In this document: piece by piece, positions 2,470 through 19,987 of the stretch | Layout of the letters: every line of letters begins with the position of its first letter | Numbering within the stretch: the stretch's first letter is position 1 | Source of the DNA: Minisyncoccota bacterium | GTDB lineage: Bacteria > Patescibacteriota > Minisyncoccia > Minisyncoccales > Minisyncoccaceae | Length of the DNA stretch: 23,655 bases | NCBI GenBank assembly: GCA_041649895.1 | Contig: JBAZMG010000006.1 | Coordinates: forward strand, 1 to 23,655 | Direction: 5' to 3' | Position numbers and translations under genes: made by a program | The notes under the pieces: model-generated | Seen by the model: the letters and a program-made list of their open reading frames with translations, nothing else | The model's database searches: none | What the model was told of the DNA's origin: nothing

Positions 2470-3102
2470 ATGCTTTCAAACCAAACTTTGCTGATCGTTT
2501 TAATTTTTTTCGGTTATCTTTTGGGTTCGATTCCGTTCGGATATCTTGTTGGAAAAATCAAAAATGTTGACATTAGGAAAAAAGGGAGTGGCGCCACAGG
2601 CGCGACCAACGTCTCCCGAACAGTGGGCTTTAAATATGCGATCTTGGTTGCGGCATTGGATATCGCTAAAGCGGTTCTACCTATATATATCGGGAGCCGT
2701 TTTTTTAATCCAAGCTGGAACGCAGATCCCGGGTGGCAAATGGCCCTAATCTCTATTGCTCCGGTATTAGGTCACATATTTCCAGTCTGGCTAAAATTCA
2801 AGGGAGGTAAGGGCGTGTCTGTTATCTTCGCTTGCATTATTATGGTAATGGGCTGGCAATACTCCTTAGTTCTTTTTGTCTTATGGCTGGCGCTCTTATT
2901 GCTTATAAAAACAATGAGTCTGACAAATATCTTAATTTTCCCGATTTTACCGTTCTTGTTTTGGTTCAGGACTCACTCTTGGGTGTATGTCTGGCTTGGT
3001 GTTTTTTATGTCCTTTTAATTTGGTGGGCGCATCGCGAGAATATAAAACGCATACGACAGGGGACTGAGCCGAAAACAATTCATAACAAAAATAAAGAAT
3101 AA
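2470..3102 (+). CDS. plsY: Glycerol-3-phosphate acyltransferase PlsY (acyl-phosphate dependent)
   Basis: 210-aa polytopic membrane ORF with GSIPFGYLVGK, GSGATGATNVSR and GHIFPVWLKFKGGKGV motifs. Confidence 0.85.
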   Translation: MLSNQTLLIVLIFFGYLLGSIPFGYLVGKIKNVDIRKKGSGATGATNVSRTVGFKYAILVAALDIAKAVLPIYIGSRFFNPSWNADPGWQMALISIAPVLGHIFPVWLKFKGGKGVSVIFACIIMVMGWQYSLVLFVLWLALLLLIKTMSLTNILIFPILPFLFWFRTHSWVYVWLGVFYVLLIWWAHRENIKRIRQGTEPKTIHNKNKE

Positions 3103-3127
3103 TAAAGCACGAATTAACTAATATTTA

Positions 3128-3300
3128 GGGCTTAATCCTTTTACAAATGATTAAGGGCGGAGCCGACGGCTTGATTGTACTCAATCACGGGCGCAGGGTT
3201 GACGAACCCGAGCCGGGCCTGAGGAAATTTTCAACAGAAAATTATCTGAAGGACGAGCCGGGACTTGAGCAAAACTTCAACAGGAGCTTATATGAAGGAA
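3128..3300 (+). repeat. Cluster of GC-rich structured modules (candidate ncRNA or leader) just upstream of the pilin array
   Basis: Hairpins CTTAATC/GATTAAG (3131-3155), AGCC-GAC-GGCT (3161-3171), TGATTG-TACT-CAATCA (3172-3187), GGGTT-GACG-AACCC (3196-3209), AATTTTC-AACA-GAAAATT (3226-3243). Invariant linkers GGGCGGAG and CGAGCCGGGCCTGAG are shared with the 181-247, 18599-18660 and 20213-20277 copies. Confidence 0.6.
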
Positions 3301-3320
3301 TCCTCAAACATTGAAAAACA

Positions 3321-4205
3321 ATGAAAAAAACTATAAAAAAACAATTTGCGTTTACATTAATAGAACTGCTTATCGTTATCGCAATAATCGGAATACTCTC
3401 TGCGTTGATTATCGTGGGAATGAATAATGCAACCCAAAAAGCGACAATCGCCAAAGCGCAAGTATTTTCCAATTCACTCCGTAATTCTTTGATGTCTGGC
3501 TTGTTTGCCGAGTATAAGCTCGATGGCAACGCCAGCGACACGTGGGGGACACACACAGCCGGAACAATCAGCGGCGCATCATCTTATGCGTCCTGTATAC
3601 AAAATACTTGCTATAGTTTCGATAGCGATGATGATTATATTGAACTCGCGGATGTCGCGGATTTAAGAATGATAACCGGAGGGACTATTTCCGTTTGGAT
3701 TTATCCAAAAAGCTACGGAGAGGGCACTCTTGGAAGAATAATTGATAAGTCGTCTTCGGGCGATTCCGGTTTAGGTGGTTATACTTTTAGGAATAGTTCT
3801 CTTAATAGATTATTGTTCGTAATAAATGACGGCACCAACACACTTACTCAACAAAACGTAATAACTTATAATCAATGGCAACTTGTGACAACTACTTTTA
3901 ATGATTCCGGTAGAAAGATATACGTTAACGGAATTGATAAAACGGCATCCGGAGGTAATGAAACAGATCTACCTCCCGACAGTACGGGAATAGTGGTTAG
4001 AATTGGAAACTCCGCATATGGAACAACCAGAACTTTTGACGGATATATTGATGATGTTCAAATATATAATCAAGTAATTCCGACTTCCCAAATCCAACAA
4101 AATTACTACGCGGGACTCAACAAACTTTTTGCCAACAGGGGAGTGGAAATATCTGAATACCAACAATGCTTAACTGAATTATCAAACAATTACGCTCAAC
4201 AGTAA
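3321..4205 (+). CDS. Type IV pilin-like N-terminus + LamG/concanavalin-A-like domain protein (paralog 1 of 9, most divergent)
   Basis: MKKTIKKQFA|FTLIELLIVIAIIGILSALI prepilin-type motif with Glu+5; LamG-type hallmarks (YSFDSDDDYIEL, TISVWIYP, FDGYIDDVQIYN); shared C-terminal tail QNYYAGLNKLFANRGVEISEYQQ. Confidence 0.85.
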   Translation: MKKTIKKQFAFTLIELLIVIAIIGILSALIIVGMNNATQKATIAKAQVFSNSLRNSLMSGLFAEYKLDGNASDTWGTHTAGTISGASSYASCIQNTCYSFDSDDDYIELADVADLRMITGGTISVWIYPKSYGEGTLGRIIDKSSSGDSGLGGYTFRNSSLNRLLFVINDGTNTLTQQNVITYNQWQLVTTTFNDSGRKIYVNGIDKTASGGNETDLPPDSTGIVVRIGNSAYGTTRTFDGYIDDVQIYNQVIPTSQIQQNYYAGLNKLFANRGVEISEYQQCLTELSNNYAQQ

Positions 4206-4232
4206 TGTTTGGGTATTCGATACCCAAACATT
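4204..4232. repeat. Intergenic palindrome type 1 (13-bp arms) upstream of an A-type pilin gene
   Basis: AATGTTTGGGTAT-TCG-ATACCCAAACATT, starting inside the stop codon of paralog 1. Confidence 0.8.
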
Positions 4233-4237
4233 GAAAA

Positions 4238-5176
4238 ATGATGAATAGAAATATAAAAACAAATTTGGCATTTACATTGATAGAACTACTTGTGGTTATC
4301 GCAATCATCGGGATTTTATCTGCATTAATTATCATTGGGATGAGCTCGACAACACAGAAAGCTAGTGTTGCCAAGGCGCAGGTGTTTGCCAATTCTTTGC
4401 GCAATTCATTGATGGCGGATATGGTTTCTGAGTGGAAGCTTGATGGAAACACCAATGATACTTGGGCGGCCTCATTTGCAAACAACGGAACCTGGTGGGG
4501 AACGACCGCGCCGAATACCGTCGCAACCTATGGAACTGCGTCCGAATGCGTTTCCGGACAATGTATGGATTTTGATGGCGTGGATGATATGGTGGACTTT
4601 GGGAGCAACGCTTCTTTATCTATGGGAACAAAAGATCACACAGTCTCTTTATGGGTTAAGTTTGATAATGCGACCGCAACAGACATAGACACATTGGTTA
4701 TCTGTGGAGCAATGACGGGAACAGGGAAAGATGGGTATTGGATTACAAGACTTACCGATAGATTATACTTTTATTTTACTGATGGAGAAGGAGCAAATAC
4801 AAGAATTGCCGGCTATTTATCCGCAGCCGGAACATTAATTGCTAATAATTGGTATCAAATAACCGTAACTATGGATAGGGACGGAAATGTAACGGGATAT
4901 ATAAACGGAACATCGCAAATAAGTTGGGCTATTTCTCCTCAGCCTGGAGACGTACAAAATTCCATAAGCTTTCGAATGGGAGCTTTTACTACATCCCTGT
5001 ATCGTCTCGCCGGTAAAATGGATGAAGTGAGAATTTTTCACGCTATTACGACAATATCTCAAATAGAGCAAAACTACTTCGCGGGACTGAACAAACTTTT
5101 TGCCAACAGGGGAGTGGAAACATCAGAATACCAACAACGCTTAACTGAATTATCAAACAATTACGCACGGGATTAA
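4238..5176 (+). CDS. Pilin-like + LamG-domain protein (paralog 2, subtype A); real start may be the second ATG at 4241
   Basis: M(M)NRNIKTNLA|FTLIELLVVIAIIGILSALI; EWKLDGNTNDTW...CMDFDGVDDMVDFG...TVSLWVKFDNA...GKMDEVRIFHAI; preceded by palindrome 4204-4232. Confidence 0.85.
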   Translation: MMNRNIKTNLAFTLIELLVVIAIIGILSALIIIGMSSTTQKASVAKAQVFANSLRNSLMADMVSEWKLDGNTNDTWAASFANNGTWWGTTAPNTVATYGTASECVSGQCMDFDGVDDMVDFGSNASLSMGTKDHTVSLWVKFDNATATDIDTLVICGAMTGTGKDGYWITRLTDRLYFYFTDGEGANTRIAGYLSAAGTLIANNWYQITVTMDRDGNVTGYINGTSQISWAISPQPGDVQNSISFRMGAFTTSLYRLAGKMDEVRIFHAITTISQIEQNYFAGLNKLFANRGVETSEYQQRLTELSNNYARD

Positions 5177-5206
5177 AATGTTTGGGGGTTAAACCCCCAA
5201 ACATTT
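5176..5206. repeat. Intergenic palindrome type 2 (13-bp arms)
   Basis: AAATGTTTGGGGG-TTAAA-CCCCCAAACATTT. Confidence 0.8.
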
Positions 5207-5213
5207 AAAAACG

Positions 5214-6104
5214 ATGAATAGAAATATAAAAACAAAATTGGCATTTACATTGATTGAGCTACTTGTGGTAATTGCAATCATCGGGATTTTATCCGCTTTG
5301 ATCATTATTGGGATGAGCTCGACAACGCAGAAAGCAAACATTGCAAAATCACAAATATTTGCCAATTCTTTGCGCAATTCATTGATGGGGGACATGGTTT
5401 CGGAGTGGAAGCTTGACGAAGGAGCTGGCGATACAATATCTGATACGTGGGGCAGCAATAATGGAACAAAAGCTGGGGCAACATGGGAAGCAATAACAAC
5501 CAACTGCGTCTACGGCAAGTGCTTATCTTTTGATGGTGATGCTGATAATATAAATTTCGGAAATAAAACTGATTTTAATTTGGCTAGCACAAGCCACACT
5601 ATTTCGGTTTGGTTTAAAACAAGTACGACAACTACTGACCATATAATTAGTCGCTTTAACGGCGGAAGTCCCGGCGCTGGATATGTTATTTTTGTGTCCT
5701 CTGGAAAGGTTTGTTTTTCGGAAAGAGCAGACGGGGGAGACTTTCTTGCCCGCGATTCAGCGCTAACCTACAATGATAATTCTTGGCATTTTGTAACTTA
5801 CACGGTTGATATTTCTTTAAAAACAGGGAGGTTTTGCATTGATGGAACTTTTTTGCCCCTGGATACTTATACTGGAAACTTAATAAATTATAATAATAAT
5901 TTATATATCGGTGGACCACAGGTAGGATACTATTTTACTGGCCTAATAGACGATATACGCATATATGATGCCGCAATGCCAGCTTTCCAAATCAACGAAC
6001 AATATTACACCGGATTGAATAAACTTTTGGCAAACAGGGGAGTGGAAACATCTGAATACGAGCAAAGAATCGTAGAATTAAATTATAATTATGCAGAAAA
6101 TTAA
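5214..6104 (+). CDS. Pilin-like + LamG-domain protein (paralog 3, A-type leader, divergent body)
   Basis: MNRNIKTKLA|FTLIELLVVIAIIGILSALI; CLSFDGDADNINFG...TISVWFK...FTGLIDDIRIYDAAM; preceded by palindrome 5176-5206. Confidence 0.85.
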   Translation: MNRNIKTKLAFTLIELLVVIAIIGILSALIIIGMSSTTQKANIAKSQIFANSLRNSLMGDMVSEWKLDEGAGDTISDTWGSNNGTKAGATWEAITTNCVYGKCLSFDGDADNINFGNKTDFNLASTSHTISVWFKTSTTTTDHIISRFNGGSPGAGYVIFVSSGKVCFSERADGGDFLARDSALTYNDNSWHFVTYTVDISLKTGRFCIDGTFLPLDTYTGNLINYNNNLYIGGPQVGYYFTGLIDDIRIYDAAMPAFQINEQYYTGLNKLLANRGVETSEYEQRIVELNYNYAEN

Positions 6105-7047
6105 AATTAACGCATTTACATTGATAGAACTACTTGTGGTTATTGCAATCATCGGAATTTTATCTGCTTTAATTGTTATCGGGATGAGCTCGACAACGCA
6201 AAAAGCCAGTGTTGCAAAAGCGCAAGTATTTGCGAATTCTCTGCGCAATTCGTTGCTGGCGGATATGGTTTCGGAGTGGAAATTGGATGACGGGACTGGA
6301 AACAGCACCACAAAAGATTCCTGGGCTTCGGCTTTTGCCAATACGGGGACCTTGGGAACAGCGGCAGTAGGGGATGCAAGCGAGCCCACATGGCTAAGTA
6401 CCGGTTGTGTTTCCGGAAACTGTCTTTCGTTTGACGGCGCTGATGATTATGTTGATTTCGGAAATAATGCGTCCCTATCAATGGGAACTAAAGATCATAC
6501 TGTATCACTCTGGGTTAAGTTTGATAATGCAACAGCGCCCGCTCCTAATAATGCGGAAACGCTGGCTCGTTGTGGGGTCCAAGCTGCCGGAGTTGGGCGG
6601 GATGGATATTGGATTTATAGGACTGGGAGTAGTCTATTTTTTTATTTTTCTGATGGTTCGGCGGATAGCATAGGCGGCTCATTATCAGGGTCCGGGACAC
6701 TAATAGCTAACACTTGGTATAACATAGTTGTTGCACTCGATAGAGATATTTCTGCCTATATGTATATAAATGGAGTTAAACAAACAGGCTACTCATTAAA
6801 TATCGTACCACAAAATGGAGACGTACAAAATACATCCTTGTTAATGATTGGGGCAACTTCAGCTGGCTATGGTCGGCTTGACGGTCAAATGGATGAGGTA
6901 AGAATCTTTCACGCTATTACGACAATATCTCAAATAGAGCAGAACTACTTTGCCGGACTGAACAAACTTTTGGCAAACAGGGGAGTGGAAACGTCTGAAT
7001 ATGAGCAAAGAGTCGCGAATTTAACTTCAAACTATGCAAAGAATTAA
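6091..7047 (+). CDS. Pilin-like + LamG-domain protein (paralog 4, subtype B)
   Basis: MQKIKINA|FTLIELLVVIAIIGILSALI; EWKLDDGTGNSTTKDSWAS...CLSFDGADDYVDFG; ATG lies inside the previous gene's NYAEN-stop codons (14-nt overlap). Confidence 0.85.
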   Translation: MQKIKINAFTLIELLVVIAIIGILSALIVIGMSSTTQKASVAKAQVFANSLRNSLLADMVSEWKLDDGTGNSTTKDSWASAFANTGTLGTAAVGDASEPTWLSTGCVSGNCLSFDGADDYVDFGNNASLSMGTKDHTVSLWVKFDNATAPAPNNAETLARCGVQAAGVGRDGYWIYRTGSSLFFYFSDGSADSIGGSLSGSGTLIANTWYNIVVALDRDISAYMYINGVKQTGYSLNIVPQNGDVQNTSLLMIGATSAGYGRLDGQMDEVRIFHAITTISQIEQNYFAGLNKLLANRGVETSEYEQRVANLTSNYAKN

Positions 7048-7978
7048 AATTAACGCATTTACTTTGATAGAACTGTTGGTTGTAATAGCGATCATCGGTA
7101 TTTTATCTGCGTTGATTGTTGTGGGTATGAGCTCGGCGACGCAGAAAGCCAGTGTTGCAAAAGCGCAAGTATTTGCTAATTCTTTGCGGAATTCCTTAAT
7201 GGCGGATATGGTTTCCGAATGGAAATTAGATGACGGAACCGGAAACAGCACAACGAAAGATTCCTGGGCTTCGACTTTTACTAATACCGGGACACTGGGG
7301 ACTGCGACGGTAGGGGATGCAAGCGAGCCCACATGGCTAAGTACTGGTTGCGTTTCTGGAAACTGTCTATCTTTCGATGGAGCTGACGACTATGTTAATT
7401 TTGGCAATAACGCTTCATTGAGTATGGGAACAAAAGATCACACAATATCTTTATGGGTTGAATTTATTAATCCAACGGCACTGCAAGATGAAACAATGAT
7501 TCGCACGGGAGCTGGCGGTAGTGGAGCTGGCTATTGGATTTATAGATTTACCGGAACAAATAAATTAAGGTTTCTTTTTCATGACGGAGTTGGTTCGCAG
7601 GCATCCGGATATTTGTCGGCGGATGGCACATTAGTTGCTGGTATTTGGTATAATATAGCTATAATAATGGATAGGGATTCCAATGCCCAAGCTTATATAA
7701 ACGGGCAAATACAAACCAGTTACCCAATAGTTATATCTGGAAACCAAGGAACTATACAAAATGTTACAAATCTAATGGTTGGAGCGCAAGACGCGTCAAC
7801 ACGACGGCTTACCGGCAAAATGGATGAAGTAAAAATATTTCACGCAATACCGTCAATCTCCCAAATTCAACAAAACTATTACGCCGGACTGAACAAACTT
7901 TTGGCAAAAAGAGGGGTGGAAACATCAGAATATGAGCAAAGAGTCGCGGATTTAATTTCAAACTACGCAAAAGAATAA
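7034..7978 (+). CDS. Pilin-like + LamG-domain protein (paralog 5, subtype B)
   Basis: MQRIKINA|FTLIELLVVIAIIGILSALI; same architecture; 14-nt overlap with paralog 4. Confidence 0.85.
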   Translation: MQRIKINAFTLIELLVVIAIIGILSALIVVGMSSATQKASVAKAQVFANSLRNSLMADMVSEWKLDDGTGNSTTKDSWASTFTNTGTLGTATVGDASEPTWLSTGCVSGNCLSFDGADDYVNFGNNASLSMGTKDHTISLWVEFINPTALQDETMIRTGAGGSGAGYWIYRFTGTNKLRFLFHDGVGSQASGYLSADGTLVAGIWYNIAIIMDRDSNAQAYINGQIQTSYPIVISGNQGTIQNVTNLMVGAQDASTRRLTGKMDEVKIFHAIPSISQIQQNYYAGLNKLLAKRGVETSEYEQRVADLISNYAKE

Positions 7979-8005
7979 TGTTCGGGTATTCGATACCCAG
8001 ACATT
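7977..8005. repeat. Intergenic palindrome type 1 (one mismatch, one G-U)
   Basis: AATGTTCGGGTAT-TCG-ATACCCAGACATT. Confidence 0.75.
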
Positions 8006-8010
8006 GAAAA

Positions 8011-8955
8011 ATGATGAATAGAAATATAAAAACAAATTTGGCATTTACGTTGATTGAGCTATTGGTCGTAATAGCGATTATTGGTATTCTTTCGGCTTTG
8101 ATCGTTATTGGGATGAGCTCGACAACTCAAAAAGCTAGTGTTGCCAAGGGCCAAGTATTTGCTAATTCTTTACGCAATTCGTTAATGTCAGATATGGTCT
8201 CGGAGTGGAAATTGGATGGAAACACTAACGACACTTGGGCGGCCTCGTACGCGAACAACGGAACTTGGTCAGGTCCAACCGCGCCAAACACAGTCGCTAC
8301 TTATGGACCGGCAGCTGAATGCGTTTCCGGACAATGTATGGATTTTGATGGAGTGGACGATTTAGTTGATTTTGGAAATAACGCTTCGCTATCAATGGGA
8401 ACAAAAGATCACACAGTCTCTTTATGGATTAAGTTTGACAATGCAACAGCCCCACAACACGAAGTTTTGATTATTAGTGGCGGCAACATTGTTGCTCCTG
8501 GATATGCTGGTTATGATATTTTAAGATACACCGGAATGAGTCGACTATATGTTGAATTTTCCGATGGCTCGGCAAATAATGTCGGTGCCTATTTATCCGC
8601 ATCGGGAACATTAGTATCTAATATTTGGTATAATATAGTAGTAATTTTTGACAGAGACGGAGTTGCCAAGGCATATATTAACGGATTGTCACAGGCGGGA
8701 ACATTAAATATATCGGTTCAACCGGGCAATGTACAAAATATTTACAACTTAAGGTTGGGGGCGTGGACACCGTCCCAATTTCGTCTTGCTGGTAAAATGG
8801 ATGAAGTGAGAATATTTCACGCGATAACAACACTTTCCCAAATTCAGCAAAACTACTACGCGGGACTGAACAAGCTTTTTGCAAACAGGGGAGTGGAAAC
8901 ATCCGAATATCAACAAAGGATCGTAGAATTAAATTCGAATTATGCAAAGAATTAA
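8011..8955 (+). CDS. Pilin-like + LamG-domain protein (paralog 6, subtype A); start may be 8014
   Basis: M(M)NRNIKTNLA|FTLIELLVVIAIIGILSALI; N-terminal ~150 aa near-identical to paralog 2; preceded by palindrome 7977-8005. Confidence 0.85.
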   Translation: MMNRNIKTNLAFTLIELLVVIAIIGILSALIVIGMSSTTQKASVAKGQVFANSLRNSLMSDMVSEWKLDGNTNDTWAASYANNGTWSGPTAPNTVATYGPAAECVSGQCMDFDGVDDLVDFGNNASLSMGTKDHTVSLWIKFDNATAPQHEVLIISGGNIVAPGYAGYDILRYTGMSRLYVEFSDGSANNVGAYLSASGTLVSNIWYNIVVIFDRDGVAKAYINGLSQAGTLNISVQPGNVQNIYNLRLGAWTPSQFRLAGKMDEVRIFHAITTLSQIQQNYYAGLNKLFANRGVETSEYQQRIVELNSNYAKN

Positions 8956-9895
8956 AATCAACGCATTCACATTAATAGAACTACTTGTGGTTATTGCAAT
9001 CATCGGGATTTTGTCTGCATTAATTATCATTGGGATGAGCTCGACAACACAGAAAGCTAGTGTTGCCAAGGCGCAAGTGTTCGCTAATTCTCTACGTAAT
9101 TCATTGATGTCGGATATGGTTTCGGAGTGGAAGCTTGATGATGGGACAGGAAACAGCACAACGAAAGATTCCTGGGCTTCGACTTTTACAAATACGGGGA
9201 CCTTGGGAACCGCAGCAGTGGGGGATGCAAGCGAGCCCACATGGCTAAGTACTGGTTGCGTTTCCGGAAACTGTCTTTCTTTTGACGGCACCGACGATTA
9301 TGTTGATTTTGGGAGCAATGCGTCTTTATCTATGGGGACTAAAGACCATACTGCGTCATTCTGGGTTAAATTTGATAATGCGGTAGCAATAGAAAATAAT
9401 ACACTGATTAAATGCGGGGCCTTCGGCGCCTCTCTTGGATCAGACGGATACTGGCTTGTTAGATTAAACGGTACAAACAAACTATATTGTTATTTCTCCG
9501 ACGGAGAAACAACAACATTGCTTGGTAATTATTTATCCGCGGATGGTTCTTTGGTTGCCGATACTTGGTACAATATTGTTGTAATGTTCGACAGGAGCGG
9601 AGTGGCTCAAGCATACATAAATGGCGTAATACAATCAGGAACACTAAACATATCATCACAAACAGGAGACGTGCAAAATAGTAGAAGTTTTACTATTGGA
9701 GCCTGGTCAGCAACACTACATCGATCCGCTGGCAAAATGGACGAAGTACGAATATTCCACGCGATTACGACACTTTCTCAAATTCAACAAAACTACTTCG
9801 CAGGACTGAACAAACTTTTGGCTAATGGGGAAGTGGAAACATCAGAATACCAACAACGCTTAACTGAATTATCAAACAATTACGCACGGGATTAA
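8942..9895 (+). CDS. Pilin-like + LamG-domain protein (paralog 7, subtype B N-terminus with the paralog-2 type C-terminus)
   Basis: MQRIKINA|FTLIELL...; the last 64 nt of the CDS plus the downstream hairpin are 100% identical to 5113-5210. Confidence 0.85.
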   Translation: MQRIKINAFTLIELLVVIAIIGILSALIIIGMSSTTQKASVAKAQVFANSLRNSLMSDMVSEWKLDDGTGNSTTKDSWASTFTNTGTLGTAAVGDASEPTWLSTGCVSGNCLSFDGTDDYVDFGSNASLSMGTKDHTASFWVKFDNAVAIENNTLIKCGAFGASLGSDGYWLVRLNGTNKLYCYFSDGETTTLLGNYLSADGSLVADTWYNIVVMFDRSGVAQAYINGVIQSGTLNISSQTGDVQNSRSFTIGAWSATLHRSAGKMDEVRIFHAITTLSQIQQNYFAGLNKLLANGEVETSEYQQRLTELSNNYARD

Positions 9896-9925
9896 AATGT
9901 TTGGGGGTTAAACCCCCAAACATTT
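9895..9925. repeat. Intergenic palindrome type 2 (identical to 5176-5206)
   Basis: AAATGTTTGGGGG-TTAAA-CCCCCAAACATTT. Confidence 0.8.
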
Positions 9926-9931
9926 AAAACA

Positions 9932-10870
9932 ATGAATAGAAATATAAAAACAAAATTGGCATTTACATTGATAGAATTATTGGTCGTGATTGCAATCATC
10001 GGGATACTTTCGGCTTTGATCATTATTGGGATGAGTTCGACGACACAGAAAGCTAGTGTTGCCAAATCGCAGGTGTTTGCCAATTCATTGCGCAATTCTT
10101 TGATGGCGGATATGGTTTCAGAATGGAAATTGGACGGGAATACTAACGATACTTGGGCGTCTTCAAATGCGAACAACGGAACGTGGTCGGGACCAACCGC
10201 GCCGAATGCCGTCGCTACTTACGGGACGGCAGCCGAATGCGTCTCCGGACAATGTATGGATTTTGACGGTGTGGATGATGTAGTTGATTTTGGAAATAAC
10301 GCTTCGTTATCAATGGGAACAAAAGATCACACAGTCTCTATTTGGGTTAAATTCGATAACGCATCACCCCCAACAGAAGAAGAAACATTAATTTTTTGCG
10401 GCGGAACAGTGGCCGCGACAGAAGGCTATTGGATCAGGAGACAAATTGGAGGAACAGGAATTTATTTTTGTTTTAACGATGGCTCGGCAACAAGGGCTAA
10501 CGGTGCTTTATCAGCGAACGGAACTTTAATTAATAATATTTGGTATAATATAGTAATAACAATGGACAGAGATTCTAATGCCCAAGCATATATAAATGGA
10601 CAAAAACAAACTGGTTATGTTGTTAGTCTCTCCTCTTGGCAAACCGACATACAGAATACTTATAATTTCCAAATTGGTGGATTTGGAGCTGTTTATACAA
10701 TGGCGGGAAAAATTGATGAAGTAAGAATATTCAATGCGATAACAACACTTTCTCAAATTCAACAAAATTACTTTGCAGGACTGAACAAACTTTTTACCAA
10801 CAAGGGAGTGGAACCGTCTGAATACCAAAAAGAGGTCACGAATTTAATTTCAAACCATGCAAAGAATTAA
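9932..10870 (+). CDS. Pilin-like + LamG-domain protein (paralog 8, subtype A)
   Basis: MNRNIKTKLA|FTLIELLVVIAIIGILSALI; preceded by palindrome 9895-9925. Confidence 0.85.
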   Translation: MNRNIKTKLAFTLIELLVVIAIIGILSALIIIGMSSTTQKASVAKSQVFANSLRNSLMADMVSEWKLDGNTNDTWASSNANNGTWSGPTAPNAVATYGTAAECVSGQCMDFDGVDDVVDFGNNASLSMGTKDHTVSIWVKFDNASPPTEEETLIFCGGTVAATEGYWIRRQIGGTGIYFCFNDGSATRANGALSANGTLINNIWYNIVITMDRDSNAQAYINGQKQTGYVVSLSSWQTDIQNTYNFQIGGFGAVYTMAGKIDEVRIFNAITTLSQIQQNYFAGLNKLFTNKGVEPSEYQKEVTNLISNHAKN

Positions 10871-11816
10871 CAAAGCATTTACATTAATTGAGCTATTGGT
10901 TGTGATAGCGATTATTGGTATTCTTTCGGCTTTGATCGTTATTGGGATGAGCTCAACAACACAGAAAGCCAGTGTTGCCAAGGCGCAAGTGTTTGCGAAT
11001 TCTCTGCGCAATTCGTTGCTGGCGGATATGGTTTCGGAGTGGAAATTGGATGACGGGACTGGAAACAGCACCACAAAAGATTCGTGGGCTTCGGTTTATG
11101 CCAATACGGGAACATTGGGAACAGCGGCGGTGGGGGACGCGAGCGAGCCAACATGGCTAAGTACCGGTTGCGTTTCCGGAAACTGCCTTGATTTTGACGG
11201 CGCTGACGATTATGTTGATTTTGGAAGCAATGCGTCTTTATCTATGGGGACTAAAGACCATATTGCGTCATTCTGGGTTAAATTTGATAATGCAGTGGCG
11301 GGCGCGCAACCCGAAACGCTAATAGTTTGCGGTTCAGTTACCGGTGGGGCGACTGGAGACGATGGTTATTGGATTGTACGCTATCAAGGAACAAGCAAAA
11401 TAAGAGGATATTTTTCTGATGGTTCGGCGGCATATATCGGCGGAGATTTATCTGCTAATAGTGTTTTTGTCGCTAATACTTGGTATAACATAGTAACAAC
11501 TTTTGATAGAGATGGAGTTGTTCAGGCATATGTTAATGGATTAAAACAAACGGGTTATTCAATAAACATTGCTCCTCAACAAGGAGATGTACAAAATTAT
11601 ATGAATTTGCGAATTGGAGCCTATTCGGCAACCGGACACCGTCTCGATGGTCAAATGGATGAGGTAAGAATCTTTCACGCCATAACAACGCTGTCTCAAA
11701 TAAAGCAAAACTATTACGCAGGACTGAACAAACTTTTTGCCAAAAACTCCCTAAATAGGGTAGAATATGAGTATAGGATGGCGGAATTACAAACTTCATC
11801 TTTAGCAAACAAATGA
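10857..11816 (+). CDS. Pilin-like + LamG-domain protein (paralog 9, subtype B, divergent C-terminal tail)
   Basis: MQRINKA|FTLIELLVVIAIIGILSALI; 14-nt overlap with paralog 8; its TGA stop overlaps the next gene's ATG (ATGA at 11813-11816). Confidence 0.85.
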   Translation: MQRINKAFTLIELLVVIAIIGILSALIVIGMSSTTQKASVAKAQVFANSLRNSLLADMVSEWKLDDGTGNSTTKDSWASVYANTGTLGTAAVGDASEPTWLSTGCVSGNCLDFDGADDYVDFGSNASLSMGTKDHIASFWVKFDNAVAGAQPETLIVCGSVTGGATGDDGYWIVRYQGTSKIRGYFSDGSAAYIGGDLSANSVFVANTWYNIVTTFDRDGVVQAYVNGLKQTGYSINIAPQQGDVQNYMNLRIGAYSATGHRLDGQMDEVRIFHAITTLSQIKQNYYAGLNKLFAKNSLNRVEYEYRMAELQTSSLANK

Positions 11817-12370
11817 TGCCTTATTTATTAGCTATTGCCTTATTCTTTCTTCCGGCTTACGTGGCGAATACCACGCCGCCTTTGGCAAACCGATTTAATA
11901 TTCTAAACAGCTTGTATAAGCCGATAGACAACAACAAGACAATAAACGGAATGCCGATCTTAGGCACACACAAAAGCTGGCGGGGATTGGTTTTGGAAAT
12001 CATATTCTGTACTGTCCTAACAGGAGCGATGTTTATTCTAAACAAGCAGTTCGGGTGGGGGATTTATGAATCACTCGGATTCGCCTACGAAAAGATCAAT
12101 GGCTTTGTTTTCGGTCTGATCTTTGGCGTTGGTATAGTTTTTGGCGATCTACTCTTCGCCTTTATCAAGCGCAGACTGCGCCTTAGGCCCGGGTTTCCTT
12201 TTATCCCGTTCGATCAGATCAACTATGTTATCGGTGCCTTTATTTTCACCGAACCAATCGCGCATTTGGGAATAAAGTTTTGGATCATTCTTGCCGGAAT
12301 AACCCTGATTATACACATTGTTTTCAATCGTCTTGGGTATAATATGGGGTTGCACAAAGCAAAATGGTAA
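11813..12370 (+). CDS. carS: CDP-archaeol synthase family protein (CarS / DUF46-like CDP-alcohol-forming cytidylyltransferase)
   Basis: 185-aa membrane ORF. By recollection of archaeal CarS it aligns block by block: FLPAYVANTTPPL, PIDNNKTINGMPILGTHKSWRGL, FGDLLFAFIKRRLRLRPGFPFIPFDQINYVIGA, C-terminal HIVFNRLGYNMGLHKAKW. Confidence 0.8.
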   Translation: MMPYLLAIALFFLPAYVANTTPPLANRFNILNSLYKPIDNNKTINGMPILGTHKSWRGLVLEIIFCTVLTGAMFILNKQFGWGIYESLGFAYEKINGFVFGLIFGVGIVFGDLLFAFIKRRLRLRPGFPFIPFDQINYVIGAFIFTEPIAHLGIKFWIILAGITLIIHIVFNRLGYNMGLHKAKW

Positions 12371-12391
12371 TATAAGATTAAAAAGCAACGC

Positions 12392-12413
12392 CCCTACCAT
12401 ATATATGGTAGGG
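12392..12413. terminator. Perfect 22-bp palindrome after carS (possible terminator, no T-tract on + strand)
   Basis: CCCTACCATAT/ATATGGTAGGG. Confidence 0.3.
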
Positions 12414-12471
12414 CATAAAAACCGCCTTCGCCCCGAGCTAACCAAAAGCTACGGCGAGGCGCAGAAATATT

Positions 12472-13155
12472 ATGCAAAATCTATTTAATATAATTTCCGC
12501 GAGTGCCGAGCGAACATTATCAATGTTAACGCAAAATTTAGTCACAAACGCCGCAAATTTGATCGGTGCTGTTTTGGTATTTATTATCGGCTGGCTTATC
12601 GCGAAGAAAATAAAGGGATTCTTCACCGACCTTTTAAACAAGATCCGCCTGAACCAAATGGCGAAATCTCTGGGATGGGAACCGTTTTTTGACAAATATG
12701 ACACTCGCCTCAATGTCCCAAAATTTTTCGGAGCGATCATTGAATTATTTTTTGTTTTACTGTTTTTAACAATTTCTTTTGACATCTTGGGCCTAGCGCA
12801 AGTAAACGCATTCCTTTTGACAATCATCAATTATTTCCCGAACATCTTTATTTCAATGCTGATCTTTATCTTCGCGGTGTTTGTTGCCGACTTTTCAAAA
12901 AAGATCGTGCTCGTCAGCTTGAACAAAGAAAAAATAACCTATTCGGGAATATTGGGCGACAGCATTGCCTGGATCACGTGGATTATGGCGATACTCGCCA
13001 TCCTGTATCAATTAAATATAGTCCCGACAATAGTGCTGACTATATTTATTGGATTCGTCGCCTTGATTGTTATTGTTTTTGGATTGGCATTCGGATTGGG
13101 CGGAAGGGAATTTGCTAAAAAAATATTAGAAGACTTGGAGAACCGGGCACGATAA
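12472..13155 (+). CDS. Membrane protein with conserved TM-helix repeats (MscS-N-terminal-like); function unknown
   Basis: 227-aa ORF with 4-5 hydrophobic segments; NLIGAVLVFIIGWLIAKKI-type helix followed by a basic linker, repeated. Confidence 0.45.
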   Translation: MQNLFNIISASAERTLSMLTQNLVTNAANLIGAVLVFIIGWLIAKKIKGFFTDLLNKIRLNQMAKSLGWEPFFDKYDTRLNVPKFFGAIIELFFVLLFLTISFDILGLAQVNAFLLTIINYFPNIFISMLIFIFAVFVADFSKKIVLVSLNKEKITYSGILGDSIAWITWIMAILAILYQLNIVPTIVLTIFIGFVALIVIVFGLAFGLGGREFAKKILEDLENRAR

Positions 13156-13189
13156 TAAAATAGAGGAAAAGCATGGGCGATTCCTCTTT

Positions 13190-15001
13190 TTGATATTTAT
13201 GGATACAATAACGTACAAAGAACTACAAAAAATGATCCTCTTTTCCGGGGAGAGGGTTAATAGAGATAAAGAACAAATAAACAAGATCAATGTATTTCCG
13301 GTTCCGGACCAGGACACGGGCTCTAATTTGGCTGCGACATTAAAGGGAATAAAAGAAGCGATTGAAGGCAAAGAATTCGGCTCAATGGAAGAATTCGCGA
13401 ACACCGTTTTGGACAGCGCCCTGACTGCGGCGCAAGGCAATGCCGGAATTATTTACACCGGATTTTTGGCCGGGTTTTTGCCCGCGATAAGCGACGTGGA
13501 AGAAGTTGATGCCAAAAAGCTTGGCAATGCTTTTAAGCTCGGATACGAGCGAGCAAAAGACTCAATCCAAAATCCGAAAGAGGGAACTATTTTAGATGTT
13601 GTCCACGCTTTTGCCGAAACTTTTAACGAGTTATCAGAAGAAAAAGAAGATATCATCGAAATATTTTACGAATCTTTCGGGAAGGCCAACCAGGCCCTGC
13701 TTGATACGCCGAATAAAATGGAATTACTGAAAAAGGCCGGCGTGGTTGATGCCGGGGGATTGGGATTTTTAATGATCCTTGAAACCTACCTTGATACGCT
13801 AAAGGAACAGACCGTGGAAAAGGTCGCGGCAAAACCCTTCCTTGCTCCGGGCGAAGAATCAGCCACGAGAAAGTTCGTCCAAATTCTATCAAACCGATAC
13901 GAAGTGGTCGCCCTGTTGGCAAATCCGAACTTAAAAGAAAAAGAGATCAGGGACAAACTGAAAAATCTGGGCAATTGCCTTGATATTATCCAAATCGCGA
14001 ACCGAATAAAGATACACATCCACACCGATGACCCTTATGAGACCAGAGATATTATTTCCAATATGGGTACGGTCGAAAATCTGAGAATTCAGGATATGGC
14101 GAGGGAAGTGGTGGGAGAAGAGTCGATGGAAAACGTTTCCATCGGCATTGTAATCGATGAACGCGCGGGATTGAGCCAAAAAATAATCCAGCATTATGAT
14201 ATTGAAGTAATCCCGTTCCGTATCACCTGGCCGGAAGAACAAAACTTGCCCGGGCACAACGTGTGCGAAAAAATAAAAGAAGCGAAAAAGAAGGGATTGA
14301 ACACCAAACCGAAGATCTCTTCCATTTCTCCGGAATTCTTTATGGAATCGTACAAAAAACAATTGGAAAAATTTGAAACTATTATCTGCATTGTCAGTAG
14401 CTCCAAACTTTCCGACAACTACAATTCCGCCCTGAAAGCGCGGGAAATGCTAAATTGGAATATGAGAGAAAGGGTTTTTGTCGTTGATTCGAAAAACATC
14501 AGCGCCGGACAATCCCTTGTGGTTTTGGAAGCGATCGAGCTCATCCGGGAACAGAGAAAAATAAAAGAAATAAAAGAACGCTTGGAAGTGGCGATTCCTC
14601 AGATCAATCTGCTCGGCATTTTAAAAAACGCGGCGTGGTGGAAAAAAGACAATCCGACCGCGAAGTTTTGGTTTACCAAAGAAAAACCGCAAGATTCTTT
14701 TTGGCTCATAGAAACAAAAGATGGAAAAATCAATCCAACGGAAAAAGTAAGATCAAATGATTTCGCCGACGTCTTGTTCAAAAAAATAGAACGGGCCGCG
14801 CGAAGAGACTTGCGAGAAGGTAAAAAGATCAGAGTGGTTATCGCGCACGCCGACAGCCTGGATCAAGCGGAAAAGCTCAAAGAAAAATTAAAGACCACGA
14901 AACGGGCTGATATTTCCTTTATCAGTATCACAGATCCGGTCACAAGCATAAACGCTTGCCCGGACAGCCTTATAGTGGCGTGGATCGTTCACCCGAGTTA
15001 A
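13190..15001 (+). CDS. DAK2-domain protein of the YloV/FakA (fatty acid kinase) type with a C-terminal DegV-like domain; start may be 13199
   Basis: NVFPVPDQDTGSNLAATL and KKAGVVDAGGLGFLMILE (Dak2/YloV hallmarks). The C-terminal half (from VSIGIVIDERAGL) is paralogous to the two downstream DegV genes. Confidence 0.75.
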   Translation: MIFMDTITYKELQKMILFSGERVNRDKEQINKINVFPVPDQDTGSNLAATLKGIKEAIEGKEFGSMEEFANTVLDSALTAAQGNAGIIYTGFLAGFLPAISDVEEVDAKKLGNAFKLGYERAKDSIQNPKEGTILDVVHAFAETFNELSEEKEDIIEIFYESFGKANQALLDTPNKMELLKKAGVVDAGGLGFLMILETYLDTLKEQTVEKVAAKPFLAPGEESATRKFVQILSNRYEVVALLANPNLKEKEIRDKLKNLGNCLDIIQIANRIKIHIHTDDPYETRDIISNMGTVENLRIQDMAREVVGEESMENVSIGIVIDERAGLSQKIIQHYDIEVIPFRITWPEEQNLPGHNVCEKIKEAKKKGLNTKPKISSISPEFFMESYKKQLEKFETIICIVSSSKLSDNYNSALKAREMLNWNMRERVFVVDSKNISAGQSLVVLEAIELIREQRKIKEIKERLEVAIPQINLLGILKNAAWWKKDNPTAKFWFTKEKPQDSFWLIETKDGKINPTEKVRSNDFADVLFKKIERAARRDLREGKKIRVVIAHADSLDQAEKLKEKLKTTKRADISFISITDPVTSINACPDSLIVAWIVHPS

Positions 15002-15051
15002 ACAATTTTGCTTTGCAAAATTAGCGCATAGCGCTGTTTAACCGGGTAAAA

Positions 15052-15086
15052 TAAGAATAAAGAATCAGGAATCAAGAATTAAGAAT
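15052..15086 (+). repeat. Five in-phase heptamer repeats NARGAAT upstream of the first degV gene
   Basis: TAAGAAT AAAGAAT CAGGAAT CAAGAAT TAAGAAT. Confidence 0.7.
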
Positions 15087-15132
15087 AAAAACAGGGAACG
15101 ATTCCAATTCATAAAAATTAGATATTAAATCA

Positions 15133-16026
15133 ATGGAAACAGAAAACCAAAACAAAAAATTAATTGGCATCGTGGCCGACGAGGCCGTTGACCTGCCTGA
15201 TTCAATTGTACAAGAAAACGAGATATCGCTCGTAAAATTCAAATTGGATTTCGAAGAACTAAAGGATGTTCCCGGCAATGTTTATGAAAAAATGCGCGAG
15301 GGAGAGAGAAGGGGACTCAAGACCATTGCCAAGACATCACAACCATCCATTAATGACTTTTTAGGCGCGTACCGGGAAAAACTGAAAAGATTTGAAGAGA
15401 TAATTTGCTTCACCATATCGGGAAAACTATCAGGAACTTTTAACTCCGCTTTACAGGCAACAAAATTTTTACCAAAAGAAGCCCAAGATAAAATTCATCT
15501 GGTTGATACATTGAACGCAACCGGGGGAGAAGGTCTTGTAGCTTTGTGGGCAGCCGATATGATCAAAGAAGCAAAATTGAAAGCCGGAGAGATCGCGGAA
15601 ACAATACGGAAAAATGTTTCCAATTTCAAACTGATCGGGATCTATGGAACACCGAAATGGCTTGAAGCGAGCGGACGCTTGCCAAAATTTTTGCCGGCAC
15701 CCTTGAGGCAAGCGGAAAAAATGAACCTCAAGCCTATTTTTGCCCTGAAAAACGGAAAGATTACTTTTATAAGCATTCGAAAAAACTTAAATGGCATCGC
15801 GAATACTCTATTCCAAGAGTTTGAAAAGCAAACTCTGGCGGCGCGCAATCAAGGAAAAAAGATCAGAGCCGCGATCACTCACGGCGACAACCCGGCTGGA
15901 GCGGAAGAACTGAAAAATTTGGTCTCAAGTTTGGAAAATGTAAAAGTGGAGTTTATAAGCCTGGCTTGTTTTCCGATCGGAGGACATGTCGGCCCGGAAT
16001 CATTAGTGCTTTCCTGGCAACAATAA
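15133..16026 (+). CDS. DegV family fatty-acid-binding protein (FakB-like)
   Basis: IGIVADEAVDLP, TSQPSINDFLGAY, ISGKLSGTFNSALQA; 297 aa. Confidence 0.85.
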   Translation: METENQNKKLIGIVADEAVDLPDSIVQENEISLVKFKLDFEELKDVPGNVYEKMREGERRGLKTIAKTSQPSINDFLGAYREKLKRFEEIICFTISGKLSGTFNSALQATKFLPKEAQDKIHLVDTLNATGGEGLVALWAADMIKEAKLKAGEIAETIRKNVSNFKLIGIYGTPKWLEASGRLPKFLPAPLRQAEKMNLKPIFALKNGKITFISIRKNLNGIANTLFQEFEKQTLAARNQGKKIRAAITHGDNPAGAEELKNLVSSLENVKVEFISLACFPIGGHVGPESLVLSWQQ

Positions 16027-16096
16027 CCCCCACCTTTTTAAAAAAGATGGGGGCAAAAAAGAATAAAAATAAAGAAACACTAATTGCATAAAATAT

Positions 16097-16972
16097 ATGA
16101 GTATCAAAATCATCGTAGGCGAAAGCGCCCCCACGACTCCGGATATTGTGGCAAAGTACGGTTTTGCGACCGTACCGTTTAAGATCGATTGGCCCGAGTT
16201 CGACACCATTAAGGGCAATACGCTTTTTCAAAAAATGCGCGAAGCGAAAAAGCAAGGCATCAAAACCACCCCCAAAACTTCTCAGCCGTCTATAGGCATA
16301 TACAAAAAAGCTTTTGACGAAGCCCTTGTCGACAACGAATATATTCTCGCGATCACTATCAGCTCCGGCATCTCGGGAACTTACAACTCCGCCATTCAAG
16401 CAAAAAAGATGTTCAGTGAAGACGCGCAAAAAAAGATCTATGTTTTTGATACATTTAACGCCGATGCCGCGGAAAGCTTGTTTGCCATTAAAGCGGGGGA
16501 TATGGCGGTGCAAGAAAAGACCATTGATGAAGTAATGGCAAAATTGGAAGAATTAAAACCATCAGCCAAACTGTACGGATTTTTGGACGACCCTTATTGG
16601 CTTGAGGCCGGAGGCAGGATCAGCCATGCCGTAGCCGTAATAATGGCGCAAATGCAAAAGATCGGAATGCGGCCTCTTTTGTCAATGAAAGACGGGGTTG
16701 TTAAGCCGGCGAATCTGAAAATGCAAGCCAAGGACACGGCCGATGCTTTGTTTAAACAGCTGGAAAGCATTGTAAAAGATCCTCTCGCGGACGGGAAAAA
16801 GGTAAGCGTTGCCATAAGCCACGCGGACAATCCCGGAGAGGCCGAAAACTTGAAAAAAATGATCGAAGAAAAATATCCTAGCGCTAAAATAGAATTCGTG
16901 ACCGAGACCGGTCCGGTGATCGGCGCGCACATCGGACCCGGATCATTAATTTGCTGCTGTTTAATAGATTAA
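16097..16972 (+). CDS. DegV family fatty-acid-binding protein (FakB-like), second paralog
   Basis: TSQPSIGIYKKAF, ISSGISGTYNSAIQA, GPVIGAHIGPGS; 291 aa. Confidence 0.85.
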   Translation: MSIKIIVGESAPTTPDIVAKYGFATVPFKIDWPEFDTIKGNTLFQKMREAKKQGIKTTPKTSQPSIGIYKKAFDEALVDNEYILAITISSGISGTYNSAIQAKKMFSEDAQKKIYVFDTFNADAAESLFAIKAGDMAVQEKTIDEVMAKLEELKPSAKLYGFLDDPYWLEAGGRISHAVAVIMAQMQKIGMRPLLSMKDGVVKPANLKMQAKDTADALFKQLESIVKDPLADGKKVSVAISHADNPGEAENLKKMIEEKYPSAKIEFVTETGPVIGAHIGPGSLICCCLID

Positions 16973-17039
16973 CCCTGTTAAATACTTTTGCCAAGCAAAA
17001 GTAAAATTTAAAAGAATCTTTAAATTTTATTTAACAGGG
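16973..17039 (+). other. 67-nt three-way-junction-like inverted-repeat structure directly after the degV stop codon
   Basis: Outer stem CCCTGTTAAAT/ATTTAACAGGG encloses hairpins CTTTTGC-CAA-GCAAAAG and AAAATTTAAA(A)G-AAT-CTTTAAATTTT. Confidence 0.6.
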
Positions 17040-17105
17040 CAAGCCCGGTTAAAAGCACTTACTGTAAACATTATTGATAAATATTAATTATAATAAATCC
17101 AACCC

Positions 17106-17810: not shown

Positions 17811-17814
17811 ACAA

Positions 17815-19486: not shown

Positions 19487-19987
19487 ATGATTTTAAGCTT
19501 AAAAATCAAACATTTTACTACTTTTACTGCAATTCTTTTTTTGTTTTTGTCAATAATTGTGCCTATTACAACAGCTATGGCGGATGATCCCGCCGCGGAA
19601 GAAGGGTTGCAAGTATGCAATTATGGCGAATGTAAATCCATTGTTTGCTGCGGAAACGGGGATCCGATATTAAACGGACAACCAAACCCAGCTTACAAAC
19701 CCTGCACGTTCAACGATATTTTCTGCACAATTAACCGAATCGTACATTTTATACTTTTTGAAATAGTCCCGGCATTAGCGCTTATCTGGTTTGCCATCGC
19801 CGGATTTACAATAATTACCGCGGCGGGCGATCCGGGCAAAGTCACCCAAGGGAGACAAATGATTACTTACGCAGTTATCGGACTGCTTGTTGTTTTTACC
19901 GCGTGGATACTTGTTTACGAATTTGTCGGATTTATCGGAGGAGCGGACCAAAAAGAATGGTTATTGCAATTTTTTAAAAAACCGTAA
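19487..19987 (+). CDS. TrbC/VirB2-like (type IV secretion pilin family) small membrane protein
   Basis: Signal peptide ending TTAMA|DD, Cys-rich segment, then two TM helices flanking AAGDPGKVTQGRQMITYAVIGL, the pattern typical of T4SS pilins. Confidence 0.55.
   Translation: MILSLKIKHFTTFTAILFLFLSIIVPITTAMADDPAAEEGLQVCNYGECKSIVCCGNGDPILNGQPNPAYKPCTFNDIFCTINRIVHFILFEIVPALALIWFAIAGFTIITAAGDPGKVTQGRQMITYAVIGLLVVFTAWILVYEFVGFIGGADQKEWLLQFFKKP

Follow-up and report, generated by a model that had tools for sequence, protein, structure and literature searches.

A tandem array of type IV pilin-like genes with LamG heads and its likely expansion to about forty paralogs in a Candidatus Paceibacterota genome

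Results

Nine tandem genes encode pilin-like proteins with a LamG head

We analysed a DNA stretch of 23,655 nucleotides (nt) (positions 1 to 23,655 of contig JBAZMG010000006.1; hereafter the window), located at the end of a contig of 32.8 kb that belongs to a Candidatus Paceibacterota metagenome-assembled genome (MAG), and in particular an array of nine related genes, g1 to g9, that it carries on the + strand between positions 3321 and 11816. An initial annotation, made from the sequence alone, had described nine consecutive + strand genes of 294-319 residues in a small-genome bacterium; all nine are indeed open reading frames (ORFs) of this size, one after the other, and the organism is a small-genome Paceibacterota, within the candidate phyla radiation (CPR). 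Aligned end to end, the nine paralogs share pairwise 41-76% of their amino acids and 51-75% of their nucleotides.

Two subtypes alternate along the array. Subtype A, with the leader M(M)NRNIKT[NK]LA and 72-76% identity among its members, comprises g2 (4238..5176, 312 residues, leader MMNRNIKTNLA), g6 (8011..8955, 314 residues) and g8 (9932..10870, 312 residues). Subtype B, with the leader MQ[KR]I(K)[IN][NK]A and 68-75% identity, comprises g4 (6091..7047, 318 residues, leader MQKIKINA), g5 (7034..7978, 314 residues), g7 (8942..9895, 317 residues) and g9 (10857..11816, 319 residues), the last with an altered tail end (..SSLANK). The other two genes are outliers: g1 (3321..4205, 294 residues) shares 41-46% identity with the rest and has its nearest relatives in an array on another contig (L087), and g3 (5214..6104, 296 residues) shares 45-53%. 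All these genes lie on the + strand.

Profile searches recovered the same two domains in every copy. With the Pfam gathering scores as thresholds (21.2 bits for N_methyl PF07963 and 27.6 bits for Laminin_G_3 PF13385), 9/9 copies passed both, at 25.1-31.0 bits for the former and 60.9-88.7 bits for the latter, whose model was almost fully covered (29.9 and 88.7 bits, respectively, in g1). The NCBIfam model TIGR02532 (cut-off 16.3) was passed by the three copies scanned with it (g1, g6 and g9; 26.1-30.6 bits), and seven of the nine also passed the cut-off of Toxin_R_bind_N, a related lectin-like family. The leaders are 7-11 residues long and rich in K, R and N, and in 33 of 33 aligned paralogs they place Ala at -1, followed by FTLIELLVVIAIIGILSALI. 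The mature N-terminus directly after this Ala is FTLIELLVVIAIIGILSAL, with Phe at +1 and Glu at +5, as expected from the short basic leader and prepilin-type N-terminus of the initial description; the corresponding F12 and E16 (g6 numbering) are invariant in these 33 paralogs and in 77 family members. Ala at -1 fits the rule that prepilin peptidases accept G, A or S at this position (PMC4371748).

Beyond the N-terminus, the sequences contain the helix extension ending in EWKLD that had been pointed out before (here ..SEWKLD), a C-x4-C pair and the motifs FDG..D and MDEVRIF. The Pfam LamG match ends at residue 252-282 and is followed by a tail of about 35 residues, which had also been predicted. 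A PDB sequence search with a profile built from the 77 family members matched alpha1 of many solved type IV pilins together with several LamG domains, the best match of the head being an S-layer-domain protein (4qvs). AlphaFold2 modelled g6 with a mean predicted local distance difference test (pLDDT) score of 86.8 and a predicted template modelling score of 0.81, as a long helix at residues 14-57 (block pLDDT 77-92), a strand-rich beta-sandwich at 62-269 (mostly pLDDT >90), which gives a head of about 210 residues, and two C-terminal helices at 275-291 and 297-313 (pLDDT about 70). In this model the sandwich begins at residue 62, straight after alpha1, with no separate pilin beta-sheet module.

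Foldseek placed the modelled sandwich with the HcN lectin-like jelly roll of tetanus and botulinum toxins (E 1e-10, probability 1.00), and further matches, both also at probability 1.00, were the carbohydrate-binding domain 4 of the arabinanase AbnA and viral LamG proteins. The profile searches and the monomer model, both suggested earlier as checks, therefore support a pilin N-terminus as well as the LamG/concanavalin A (ConA)-like beta-sandwich that had been proposed. These results indicate that the products of the array are type IV pilin-like, with a LamG head where pilins usually have their globular domain.

The assembly parts are invariant and the whole head diverges

Entropy calculated over the 33 paralogs was about 0-0.5 bits at residues 11-60 and 0.6 at residues 281-290, and 2-2.9 bits at residues 141-260, in agreement with the earlier observation that protein conservation is high at both ends and lower in the centre. 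Residues 11-31 and much of 34-53 are invariant, as are D69, D74, Cys104/Cys109, F112, W139, G250, D264, I278, Y282, L289 and Y300; among the conserved elements, FDG, W139 and MDEVRIF are structural signatures of the LamG family. The initial annotation had located the variability in ligand-facing loops. Divergence instead spans the entire head, strands as much as loops (mean entropy 2.08 bits in predicted strands and 2.16 bits in loops).

Windowed Nei-Gojobori estimates for the seven core paralogs gave a proportion of synonymous differences (pS) of 0.45-0.74 everywhere, that is, saturated synonymous sites. The ratio of nonsynonymous to synonymous substitution (dN/dS) was 0.02-0.08 in residues 1-75 and 261-290 and 0.2-0.4 in residues 86-115 and 146-260. 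The dN/dS analysis proposed earlier thus returned purifying selection (0.02-0.4) and, with dS saturated, no window above 1, in the presumed ligand-facing parts as elsewhere. In the first 75 codons of g2 and g6, one of the comparisons behind the earlier claim of many synonymous differences between conserved N-terminal parts, 31 codons differ synonymously only and there are 3 amino-acid changes, which bears that claim out. The invariance of alpha1 against this saturated background argues for strong purifying selection on a common assembly interface.

The same estimates bear on the idea that the copies are silent cassettes for antigenic variation by gene conversion. Neisseria pilS copies, the model for such a system, are truncated, promoterless gene-conversion donors. 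The window array shares with Neisseria pilE/pilS its many pilin-related tandem copies with conserved ends and a variable centre. However, each window copy is a complete, full-length ORF that has a start codon, a leader and an alpha1 of its own, and has diverged anciently under purifying selection; near-identical tracts are absent, the longest shared tracts being about 300 nt at 82-83% identity, and no single distinct expression locus is apparent. Saturated pS and the lack of near-identical tracts indicate old duplicates, each kept as a coding gene with no recent gene conversion. We therefore regard the cassette explanation as effectively refuted, and concur with the initial view that the copies are kept by purifying selection and are not silent.

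Conservation also bears on the position that these proteins would take in a filament, which the initial annotation had set at the pilus tip. They could be low-abundance tip lectins, like PilC of Streptococcus sanguinis, carried by a shaft of small major pilins, different pili bearing different tips, an arrangement that we consider the chief alternative, possible but doubtful. Known tip complexes consist of mutually dissimilar minor pilins, whereas here all paralogs keep Glu5, alpha1 is invariant through its C-terminal half and a tail helix is conserved as well. Forty alternative tips would moreover be an unusually large set, and in the inspected loci the genes are unlinked to any minor-pilin or machinery operon. 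Arguing for a tip position are the size of the head, about 210 residues, the proposal that bulky modular pilins fit best at the tip (PMC8179133, PMC9934059) and the precedent of Nanosynbacter lyticus TM7x, where the large-domain pilins are minor and the major pilins small (PMC11623550). With Glu5 in all copies and both alpha1 and the first tail helix invariant in 33 paralogs, the pattern resembles interchangeable major or co-polymerising pilins, such as Haloferax PilA1-6 (PMC4371748), more than a fixed tip complex.

A covarying stem-loop and 14-nt overlaps mark the junctions of the array

Two kinds of junction join the genes of the array. B-type genes start 14 nt inside the last codons of the preceding gene (g4 within g3, g5 within g4, g7 within g6 and g9 within g8), so that the triplets for ..NYAKN* contain the ATG of the next gene. 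Conservation at the extreme end of the tail may partly reflect this overlap, though junctions without it also keep NYA. A-type genes and g3 are instead preceded by a stem-loop of 27-30 nt, of the form AATGTTTGGG-(3 variable pairs)-loop-CCCAAACATT, which overlaps the upstream stop codon and ends 6-10 nt ahead of the next ATG. Together, these junctions split the array into five sub-units: g1, g2, g3-g4-g5, g6-g7 and g8-g9-CarS, the last including the downstream CarS-like gene described below.

Four copies of the stem-loop lie in the window, all on the + strand. The first (4204..4233; AATGTTTGGGTAT-TCG-ATACCCAAACATT) overlaps the g1 stop and ends 6 nt before the g2 start; the second (5177..5206; AATGTTTGGGGG-TTAAA-CCCCCAAACATT) is identical to the fourth (9896..9925), and the third (7977..8006) is a variant that has a single G-U pair and a single mismatch. 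Further copies of the element are found at the junctions of related arrays on the contigs L086 (11839-11868) and L087 (6967, 9047, 11011, 11976, 13838, 15837 and 16798), and in L088, where the L087 array recurs in identical form in another sample. Among the loci scanned, no copy was found outside the junctions and ends of pilin-LamG arrays. Over the 8 distinct copies, 95% of the cells are paired and nine cells are compensatory at the three inner pairs, a level of covariation matched by 0/500 shuffles.

Most copies lack a U-tract, and the one ahead of the L087 array has one and is terminator-like; attenuator, RNA stabiliser and processing site are candidate roles that the element may have. We considered but discarded a mini-ORF whose ATG would overlap the stop codon: its peptide would have 9 codons in one copy, 4 in a second, and in L087 would run out of frame into the next gene. 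Ahead of g1 lies a leader region of 218 nt (3103..3320, + strand), insertion-specific and with a G+C-rich stretch, whose end ..CCTCAAACATTGAAAAACAATG resembles the 3' half of the junction stem-loop. Neither this region nor the junctions matched any Rfam family, and a scan for sigma-70 promoters and terminators performed no better than on shuffled sequence.

The family is expanded in seven arrays on five contigs

Seven arrays, spread over five contigs of one sample (193 kb), contain forty genes of the pilin-LamG family, the nine window genes among them; this number is a lower bound, as at least two further hits (P0096 and P0118) may belong to the same genome. Apart from the window, the ATP synthase operon is followed by 4 family genes (L002); one contig (L085, L095) has 4 behind a VirD4-like gene and 7 ahead of MurB; 5 lie between YebC and RuvB (L086); and L087 has 10 between GlmS and PFOR and 1 between HtrA and LeuRS. 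All arrays run in the direction of the housekeeping genes around them and are tightly packed among them. No pair of paralogs is more than 76% identical, and the roughly 40 genes, about 37 kb, amount to about 19% of the five contigs examined.

With the arrays masked, the other four contigs have a GC content of 0.41-0.43 and tetranucleotide correlations of 0.957-0.977 to the window, against 0.983 for a within-contig control, and other Paceibacterota loci lie at a GC content of 0.31-0.37 and correlations of 0.82-0.87. Together with the shared stem-loop, this composition makes a single genome or population likely. The proximity of NCBI accession numbers proved unreliable as evidence for a single MAG, two proteins of one contig being about 500 accessions apart.

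In other genomes the family is also found, in sets of similar or lesser size, adjoining FtsX/FtsZ or RNase Y genes. One of them (L091) has nine tandem copies of its own subtype, which mostly group together and not with the window genes, suggesting that the expansions are lineage-specific, and another locus (L090) holds at least 3 copies. In a second organism (L089), the site syntenic to the L086 array carries FBPase and aldolase genes and no pilins, which indicates that arrays come and go between genomes. In a scan of genome contigs with the paralog alignment, pilin N-termini of a generic kind dominated, from Verrucomicrobiota, Planctomycetota and further phyla, and no useful orthologous arrays emerged. 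A profile search of a library of 1.84 billion representatives retrieved 24,511 of them at E<=1e-30, with giant multi-LamG proteins (up to 7,000 residues and 31 repeats) prevailing, so that the size of the pilin family cannot be read from it.

Among these representatives (P0123-P0272), the head unit, profile positions of about 59-287, recurs 6-31 times in proteins of 1,350-7,760 residues; it begins before the Pfam LamG match and extends to the first tail helix. This recurrence suggests a common origin of the pilin head and the module repeated in very large surface proteins. Separately, Lamin-tail-domain (LTD) proteins, one of more than 1,387 residues, lie near two of the arrays (L095 1-2648 and L086 12858-13592) and are candidate surface proteins.

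A PilB/GspE-type ATPase lies near a sister array

The initial annotation had listed no pilus assembly genes in the window, and this is confirmed: none was found there or in the further 9 kb of the contig. Its call for type IV machinery elsewhere in the genome was answered in part. About 2 kb from the L086 array, on a contig of window-like composition, lies a gene for a PilB/GspE-type ATPase of 435 residues without the N-terminal domain; it scored 428 bits with the GspE model and 408 bits with the PilB model, far above the 175 bits of the PilT family model, which identifies it as an extension-type ATPase. The remaining part of the machinery is treated in the Discussion. The ATPase belongs to a mini-cluster conserved downstream of RuvB (L086 14962-17405; L089 16977-20630), in which it is followed by a protein of 357-366 residues that matched no family confidently and gave just a faint hit to DHH. 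The L089 cluster adds a 397-residue pilin with N_methyl, T2SSG and LamG domains, a conventional bimodular pilin. Some of the filament machinery handling the LamG pilins may be encoded in this mini-cluster.

These loci are also where a different reading has to be weighed, namely that the proteins are not filament subunits and use the class III signal peptide for export and anchoring only, forming a bindosome-like or pseudopilus-anchored lectin coat. Archaeal sugar-binding proteins with pilin-type signal peptides and no long pili (mentioned in PMC4371748) offer a parallel, the best PDB sequence match of the head is the S-layer-domain protein described above, and no machinery genes adjoin the arrays. 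Nevertheless, residues 11-58 and the tail helix are conserved far past what a cleavage site or anchor needs, and Glu5 is invariant. Since type IV pilus core genes have been described as near-universal in this phylum (PMC13293708) and the ATPase stands near a sister array, we judge such a coat improbable.

The window array is an insertion into a conserved lipid operon

The array is flanked by the genes for a glycerol-3-phosphate acyltransferase, PlsY (2470..3102, + strand; Pfam G3P_acyltransf 163 bits; TIGR00023 166 bits, cut-off 137), at its left boundary and a CarS-like CTP-transferase of the CDP-archaeol synthase family (11813..12370, + strand; Pfam CarS-like 91 bits) at its right. The flanks (2470-3102 and 11813-18483) encode a complete exogenous-fatty-acid route: three PlsY, a FakA-DegV fusion, two further DegV, the CarS-like protein and a small membrane protein with a mechanosensitive-channel transmembrane motif. 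This operon is fully syntenic in three related genomes (L092, L093 and L094), including that of Ca. Microsyncoccus archaeolyticus, a parasite of methanogenic archaea (PMC10936435); because PlsY lies 5-36 nt from the CarS-like gene in these three relatives, window positions 3103-11812 are an insertion. An archaeal-type CarS homologue within a bacterial lipid operon, conserved in Paceibacterales, is an observation worth recording in itself.

The translational coupling of the last gene to a lipid enzyme gene, also part of the initial annotation, holds to the extent that the g9 stop overlaps the CarS-like start through ATGA (11813-11816). As the array is inserted into a conserved lipid operon and other arrays are inserted into unrelated housekeeping operons, this coupling is structural only. 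A functional link, with the LamG pilins capturing or docking host membrane lipids for the FakA/FakB-PlsY-CarS pathway, would account for the location of the array and the ATGA overlap, and the best structural matches of the head do include the HcN domain of clostridial neurotoxins. In two relatives a single pilin-LamG gene stands elsewhere in the same operon (L092 13108-14010 and L093 9856-10758), flanked by the FakA-DegV fusion and DegV and overlapping by 1 nt. This second, independent insertion of the family would fit such a link, but may be coincidental given the many insertion sites. Against such a link, the six other arrays stand beside the ATP synthase, VirD4-like, MurB, YebC/RuvB, HtrA/LeuRS and GlmS/PFOR genes, family members of other genomes adjoin FtsX/FtsZ or RNase Y, and the lipid operon of Ca. 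Microsyncoccus contains no family member. We therefore hold a role in lipid capture to be very improbable.

Past the lipid operon, the contig continues with a type IV secretion system (T4SS)-type pilin and the genes for ribosomal protein S15 and PNPase. The T4SS_pilin protein (PF18895, TrbC/VirB2-like; 19487-19987, 166 residues) lies between tRNA-Arg and tRNA-Lys, as it does in L092, L093 and L094, and T4SS pilins have been reported among the highly expressed genes of unknown function in Ca. Microsyncoccus and Ca. Minisyncoccus (PMC10936435).

On the other side of the array, an AT-rich stretch (850-1960; 31% GC) of about 1.1-1.5 kb with few ORFs contains the 9-mer ATGTCCRCA in 11 exact copies (0.23 expected by chance), along with degenerate ones in either orientation, and has the palindrome TGTTTCCCGTGAAACA four times. 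In sequence, the 9-mer is similar to a DnaA box, TTATCCACA. The GC skew of the + strand flips sign near position 2000, all genes at 2048-22912 are on the + strand, and dnaA and dnaN of the same probable genome are on another contig, L086; the stretch is a candidate replication origin or multi-site regulatory region. Directly after tRNA-Val, an inverted repeat with 29-nt arms (484-545) shows weak partial similarity to terminator-containing Rfam models and is probably the terminator of the tRNA transcript.

Discussion

In the question of how CPR bacteria (Patescibacteria) recognise and attach to their hosts, type IV pili are the main suspects, and we know of no experimental study of host attachment by CPR type IV pili outside the Saccharibacteria. 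For the array described here we propose, with moderate confidence, that its products are adhesive type IV pilus subunits that can replace one another or co-polymerise, a general model in which we infer processing, polymerisation, filament position, ligand class and expression. A prepilin peptidase would cut the short basic leader after Ala-1, and the invariant alpha1, with Phe1 and Glu5, would pack in the filament core. The LamG/ConA-like jelly-roll head, directly after alpha1, would displace the usual beta-sheet domain and be followed by the conserved two-helix tail. A single type IV pilus machine, with its genes elsewhere in the genome, would process and polymerise all copies; this proposal stems from finding the same assembly parts with different heads among the roughly 40 paralogs. 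A partner in assembly common to all of them (a single peptidase, platform and filament lattice) would best explain why alpha1 and the first tail helix stay invariant across paralogs so divergent.

The differing heads would give the pilus many binding specificities, probably for glycans, in attachment to host cells or surfaces. The array is probably transcribed with the lipid operon, which would imply constitutive co-expression and not switching to one copy at a time, and the stem-loops and 14-nt overlaps may set the relative expression of the five sub-units.

A more radical form of the same idea is that the LamG pilins are the shaft itself, a heteropolymeric "lectin-brush" pilus in which every subunit bears a different head and the stem-loops tune stoichiometry. 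The shared assembly helix and tail, as well as presumed co-transcription within housekeeping operons, lead to this reading, which we nonetheless rate as unlikely. Should it be true, a parasite with a genome of about 1 Mb could grip variable host envelopes, possibly archaeal ones given the hosts of its relatives.

Several observations weigh against the proposal of adhesive pilus subunits. A head of about 25 kDa on each subunit may be hard to pack in a shaft, which would favour a position confined to the tip. The Pfam scan found no T2SSG or other pilin globular domain in the nine copies, and the lack of a classical pilin beta-sheet domain sets the proteins apart from modular pilins of solved structure. 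In the head we identified no conserved site for binding sugar or metal, and it is from the modelled fold that glycans are taken as the probable ligands. PilC, PilD (Peptidase_A24) and PilM/N/O were all absent from the Pfam gene tables of the approximately 100-130 kb inspected of the five contigs, which yielded a single assembly ATPase, the genome being incomplete. Finally, the assignment of the arrays to one genome, which we consider likely, rests on composition, the shared sample and the shared repeat element.

A Paceibacterota lineage related to cultivated parasites of methanogens thus probably devotes a large share of its tiny genome to one pilin family, fixed in its assembly module and diverse in its lectin-like heads. 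This family is a candidate determinant of attachment or host range and a natural set of heads to screen on glycan arrays or for host binding, as well as a case for asking how many bulky subunits a single type IV machine can polymerise. The operon insertions and the array-specific stem-loop, in turn, provide markers for tracing the growth of the repertoire.

NCBI and JGI annotate the window proteins generically. In our literature searches, made in an incomplete library, we found no description of an expansion on this scale, of the design with invariant helix and variable head, or of a missing beta-sheet module combined with a helical tail, and the insertion of arrays in housekeeping operons and the junction stem-loop were likewise undescribed there. 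The protein type as such is already catalogued. N_methyl (IPR012902) with PF13385 is among the commonest modular pilin architectures, CPR examples included (Raynaud et al. 2021, PMC8179133), and those proteins have, like ours, the same two signatures in the same order and predicted carbohydrate binding. That survey, however, lists single proteins and describes no multigene arrays, and the window proteins differ in that LamG directly follows alpha1 and a family-specific two-helix tail is present. A modular pilin in the strict sense of Raynaud and Pelicic (alpha1 and an antiparallel beta-sheet, joined through a short loop to the extra module) was rejected as a classification, there being no separate beta-sheet module; by analogy, the window proteins may still work like modular pilins. 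We regard the array as a lineage-specific tandem expansion of a Paceibacterota modular type IV pilin family, and the real surprise is the number of paralogs, about 40 in what is probably one genome.

A second candidate family, TafC, the haloarchaeal Tat-fimbriae subunit (NF052521; PMC11821415), was also rejected, as it scored 24-52 bits over the LamG part only (cut-off 410) and uses a Tat signal, in contrast to the pilin signal of the window proteins. For the head, the nearest precedents by analogy would be PilC of Streptococcus sanguinis and the lectin-like minor pilins of TM7x. The former combines a class III signal peptide with a ConA-like lectin/glucanase module, binds glycans and promotes adhesion in a monoderm-type pilus (PMC9934059), but is encoded by a single gene within the pil locus, is about 53 kDa in size and has a short pilin moiety in a PilA-stabilised tip complex; it gave no match in the PDB profile search at E<=0.01 and was absent from the top 50 Foldseek hits. 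PilX1 and PilX2 of TM7x, a CPR episymbiont whose type IV pili have been implicated in binding the host, have C-terminal domains that are lectin-like and of the beta-jelly-roll or beta-propeller type (PMC11623550); they differ in being products of single genes in the pilus locus, beside small major pilins, in a member of the Saccharibacteria for which no paralog expansion is reported.

For the array as a whole, the nearest functional precedent would be PilA1-PilA6 of Haloferax volcanii (PMC4371748), again by analogy. These are paralogous pilins with a near-identical hydrophobic N-terminal (H-) domain and differing C-terminal parts, encoded by genes that are neither linked to nor co-regulated with the biogenesis genes, and each of them is able to fill the role of major pilin, with differing adhesion. 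They are, however, archaeal and PibD-processed, number six against about 40, are small and without a LamG head, and do not form long tandem arrays.

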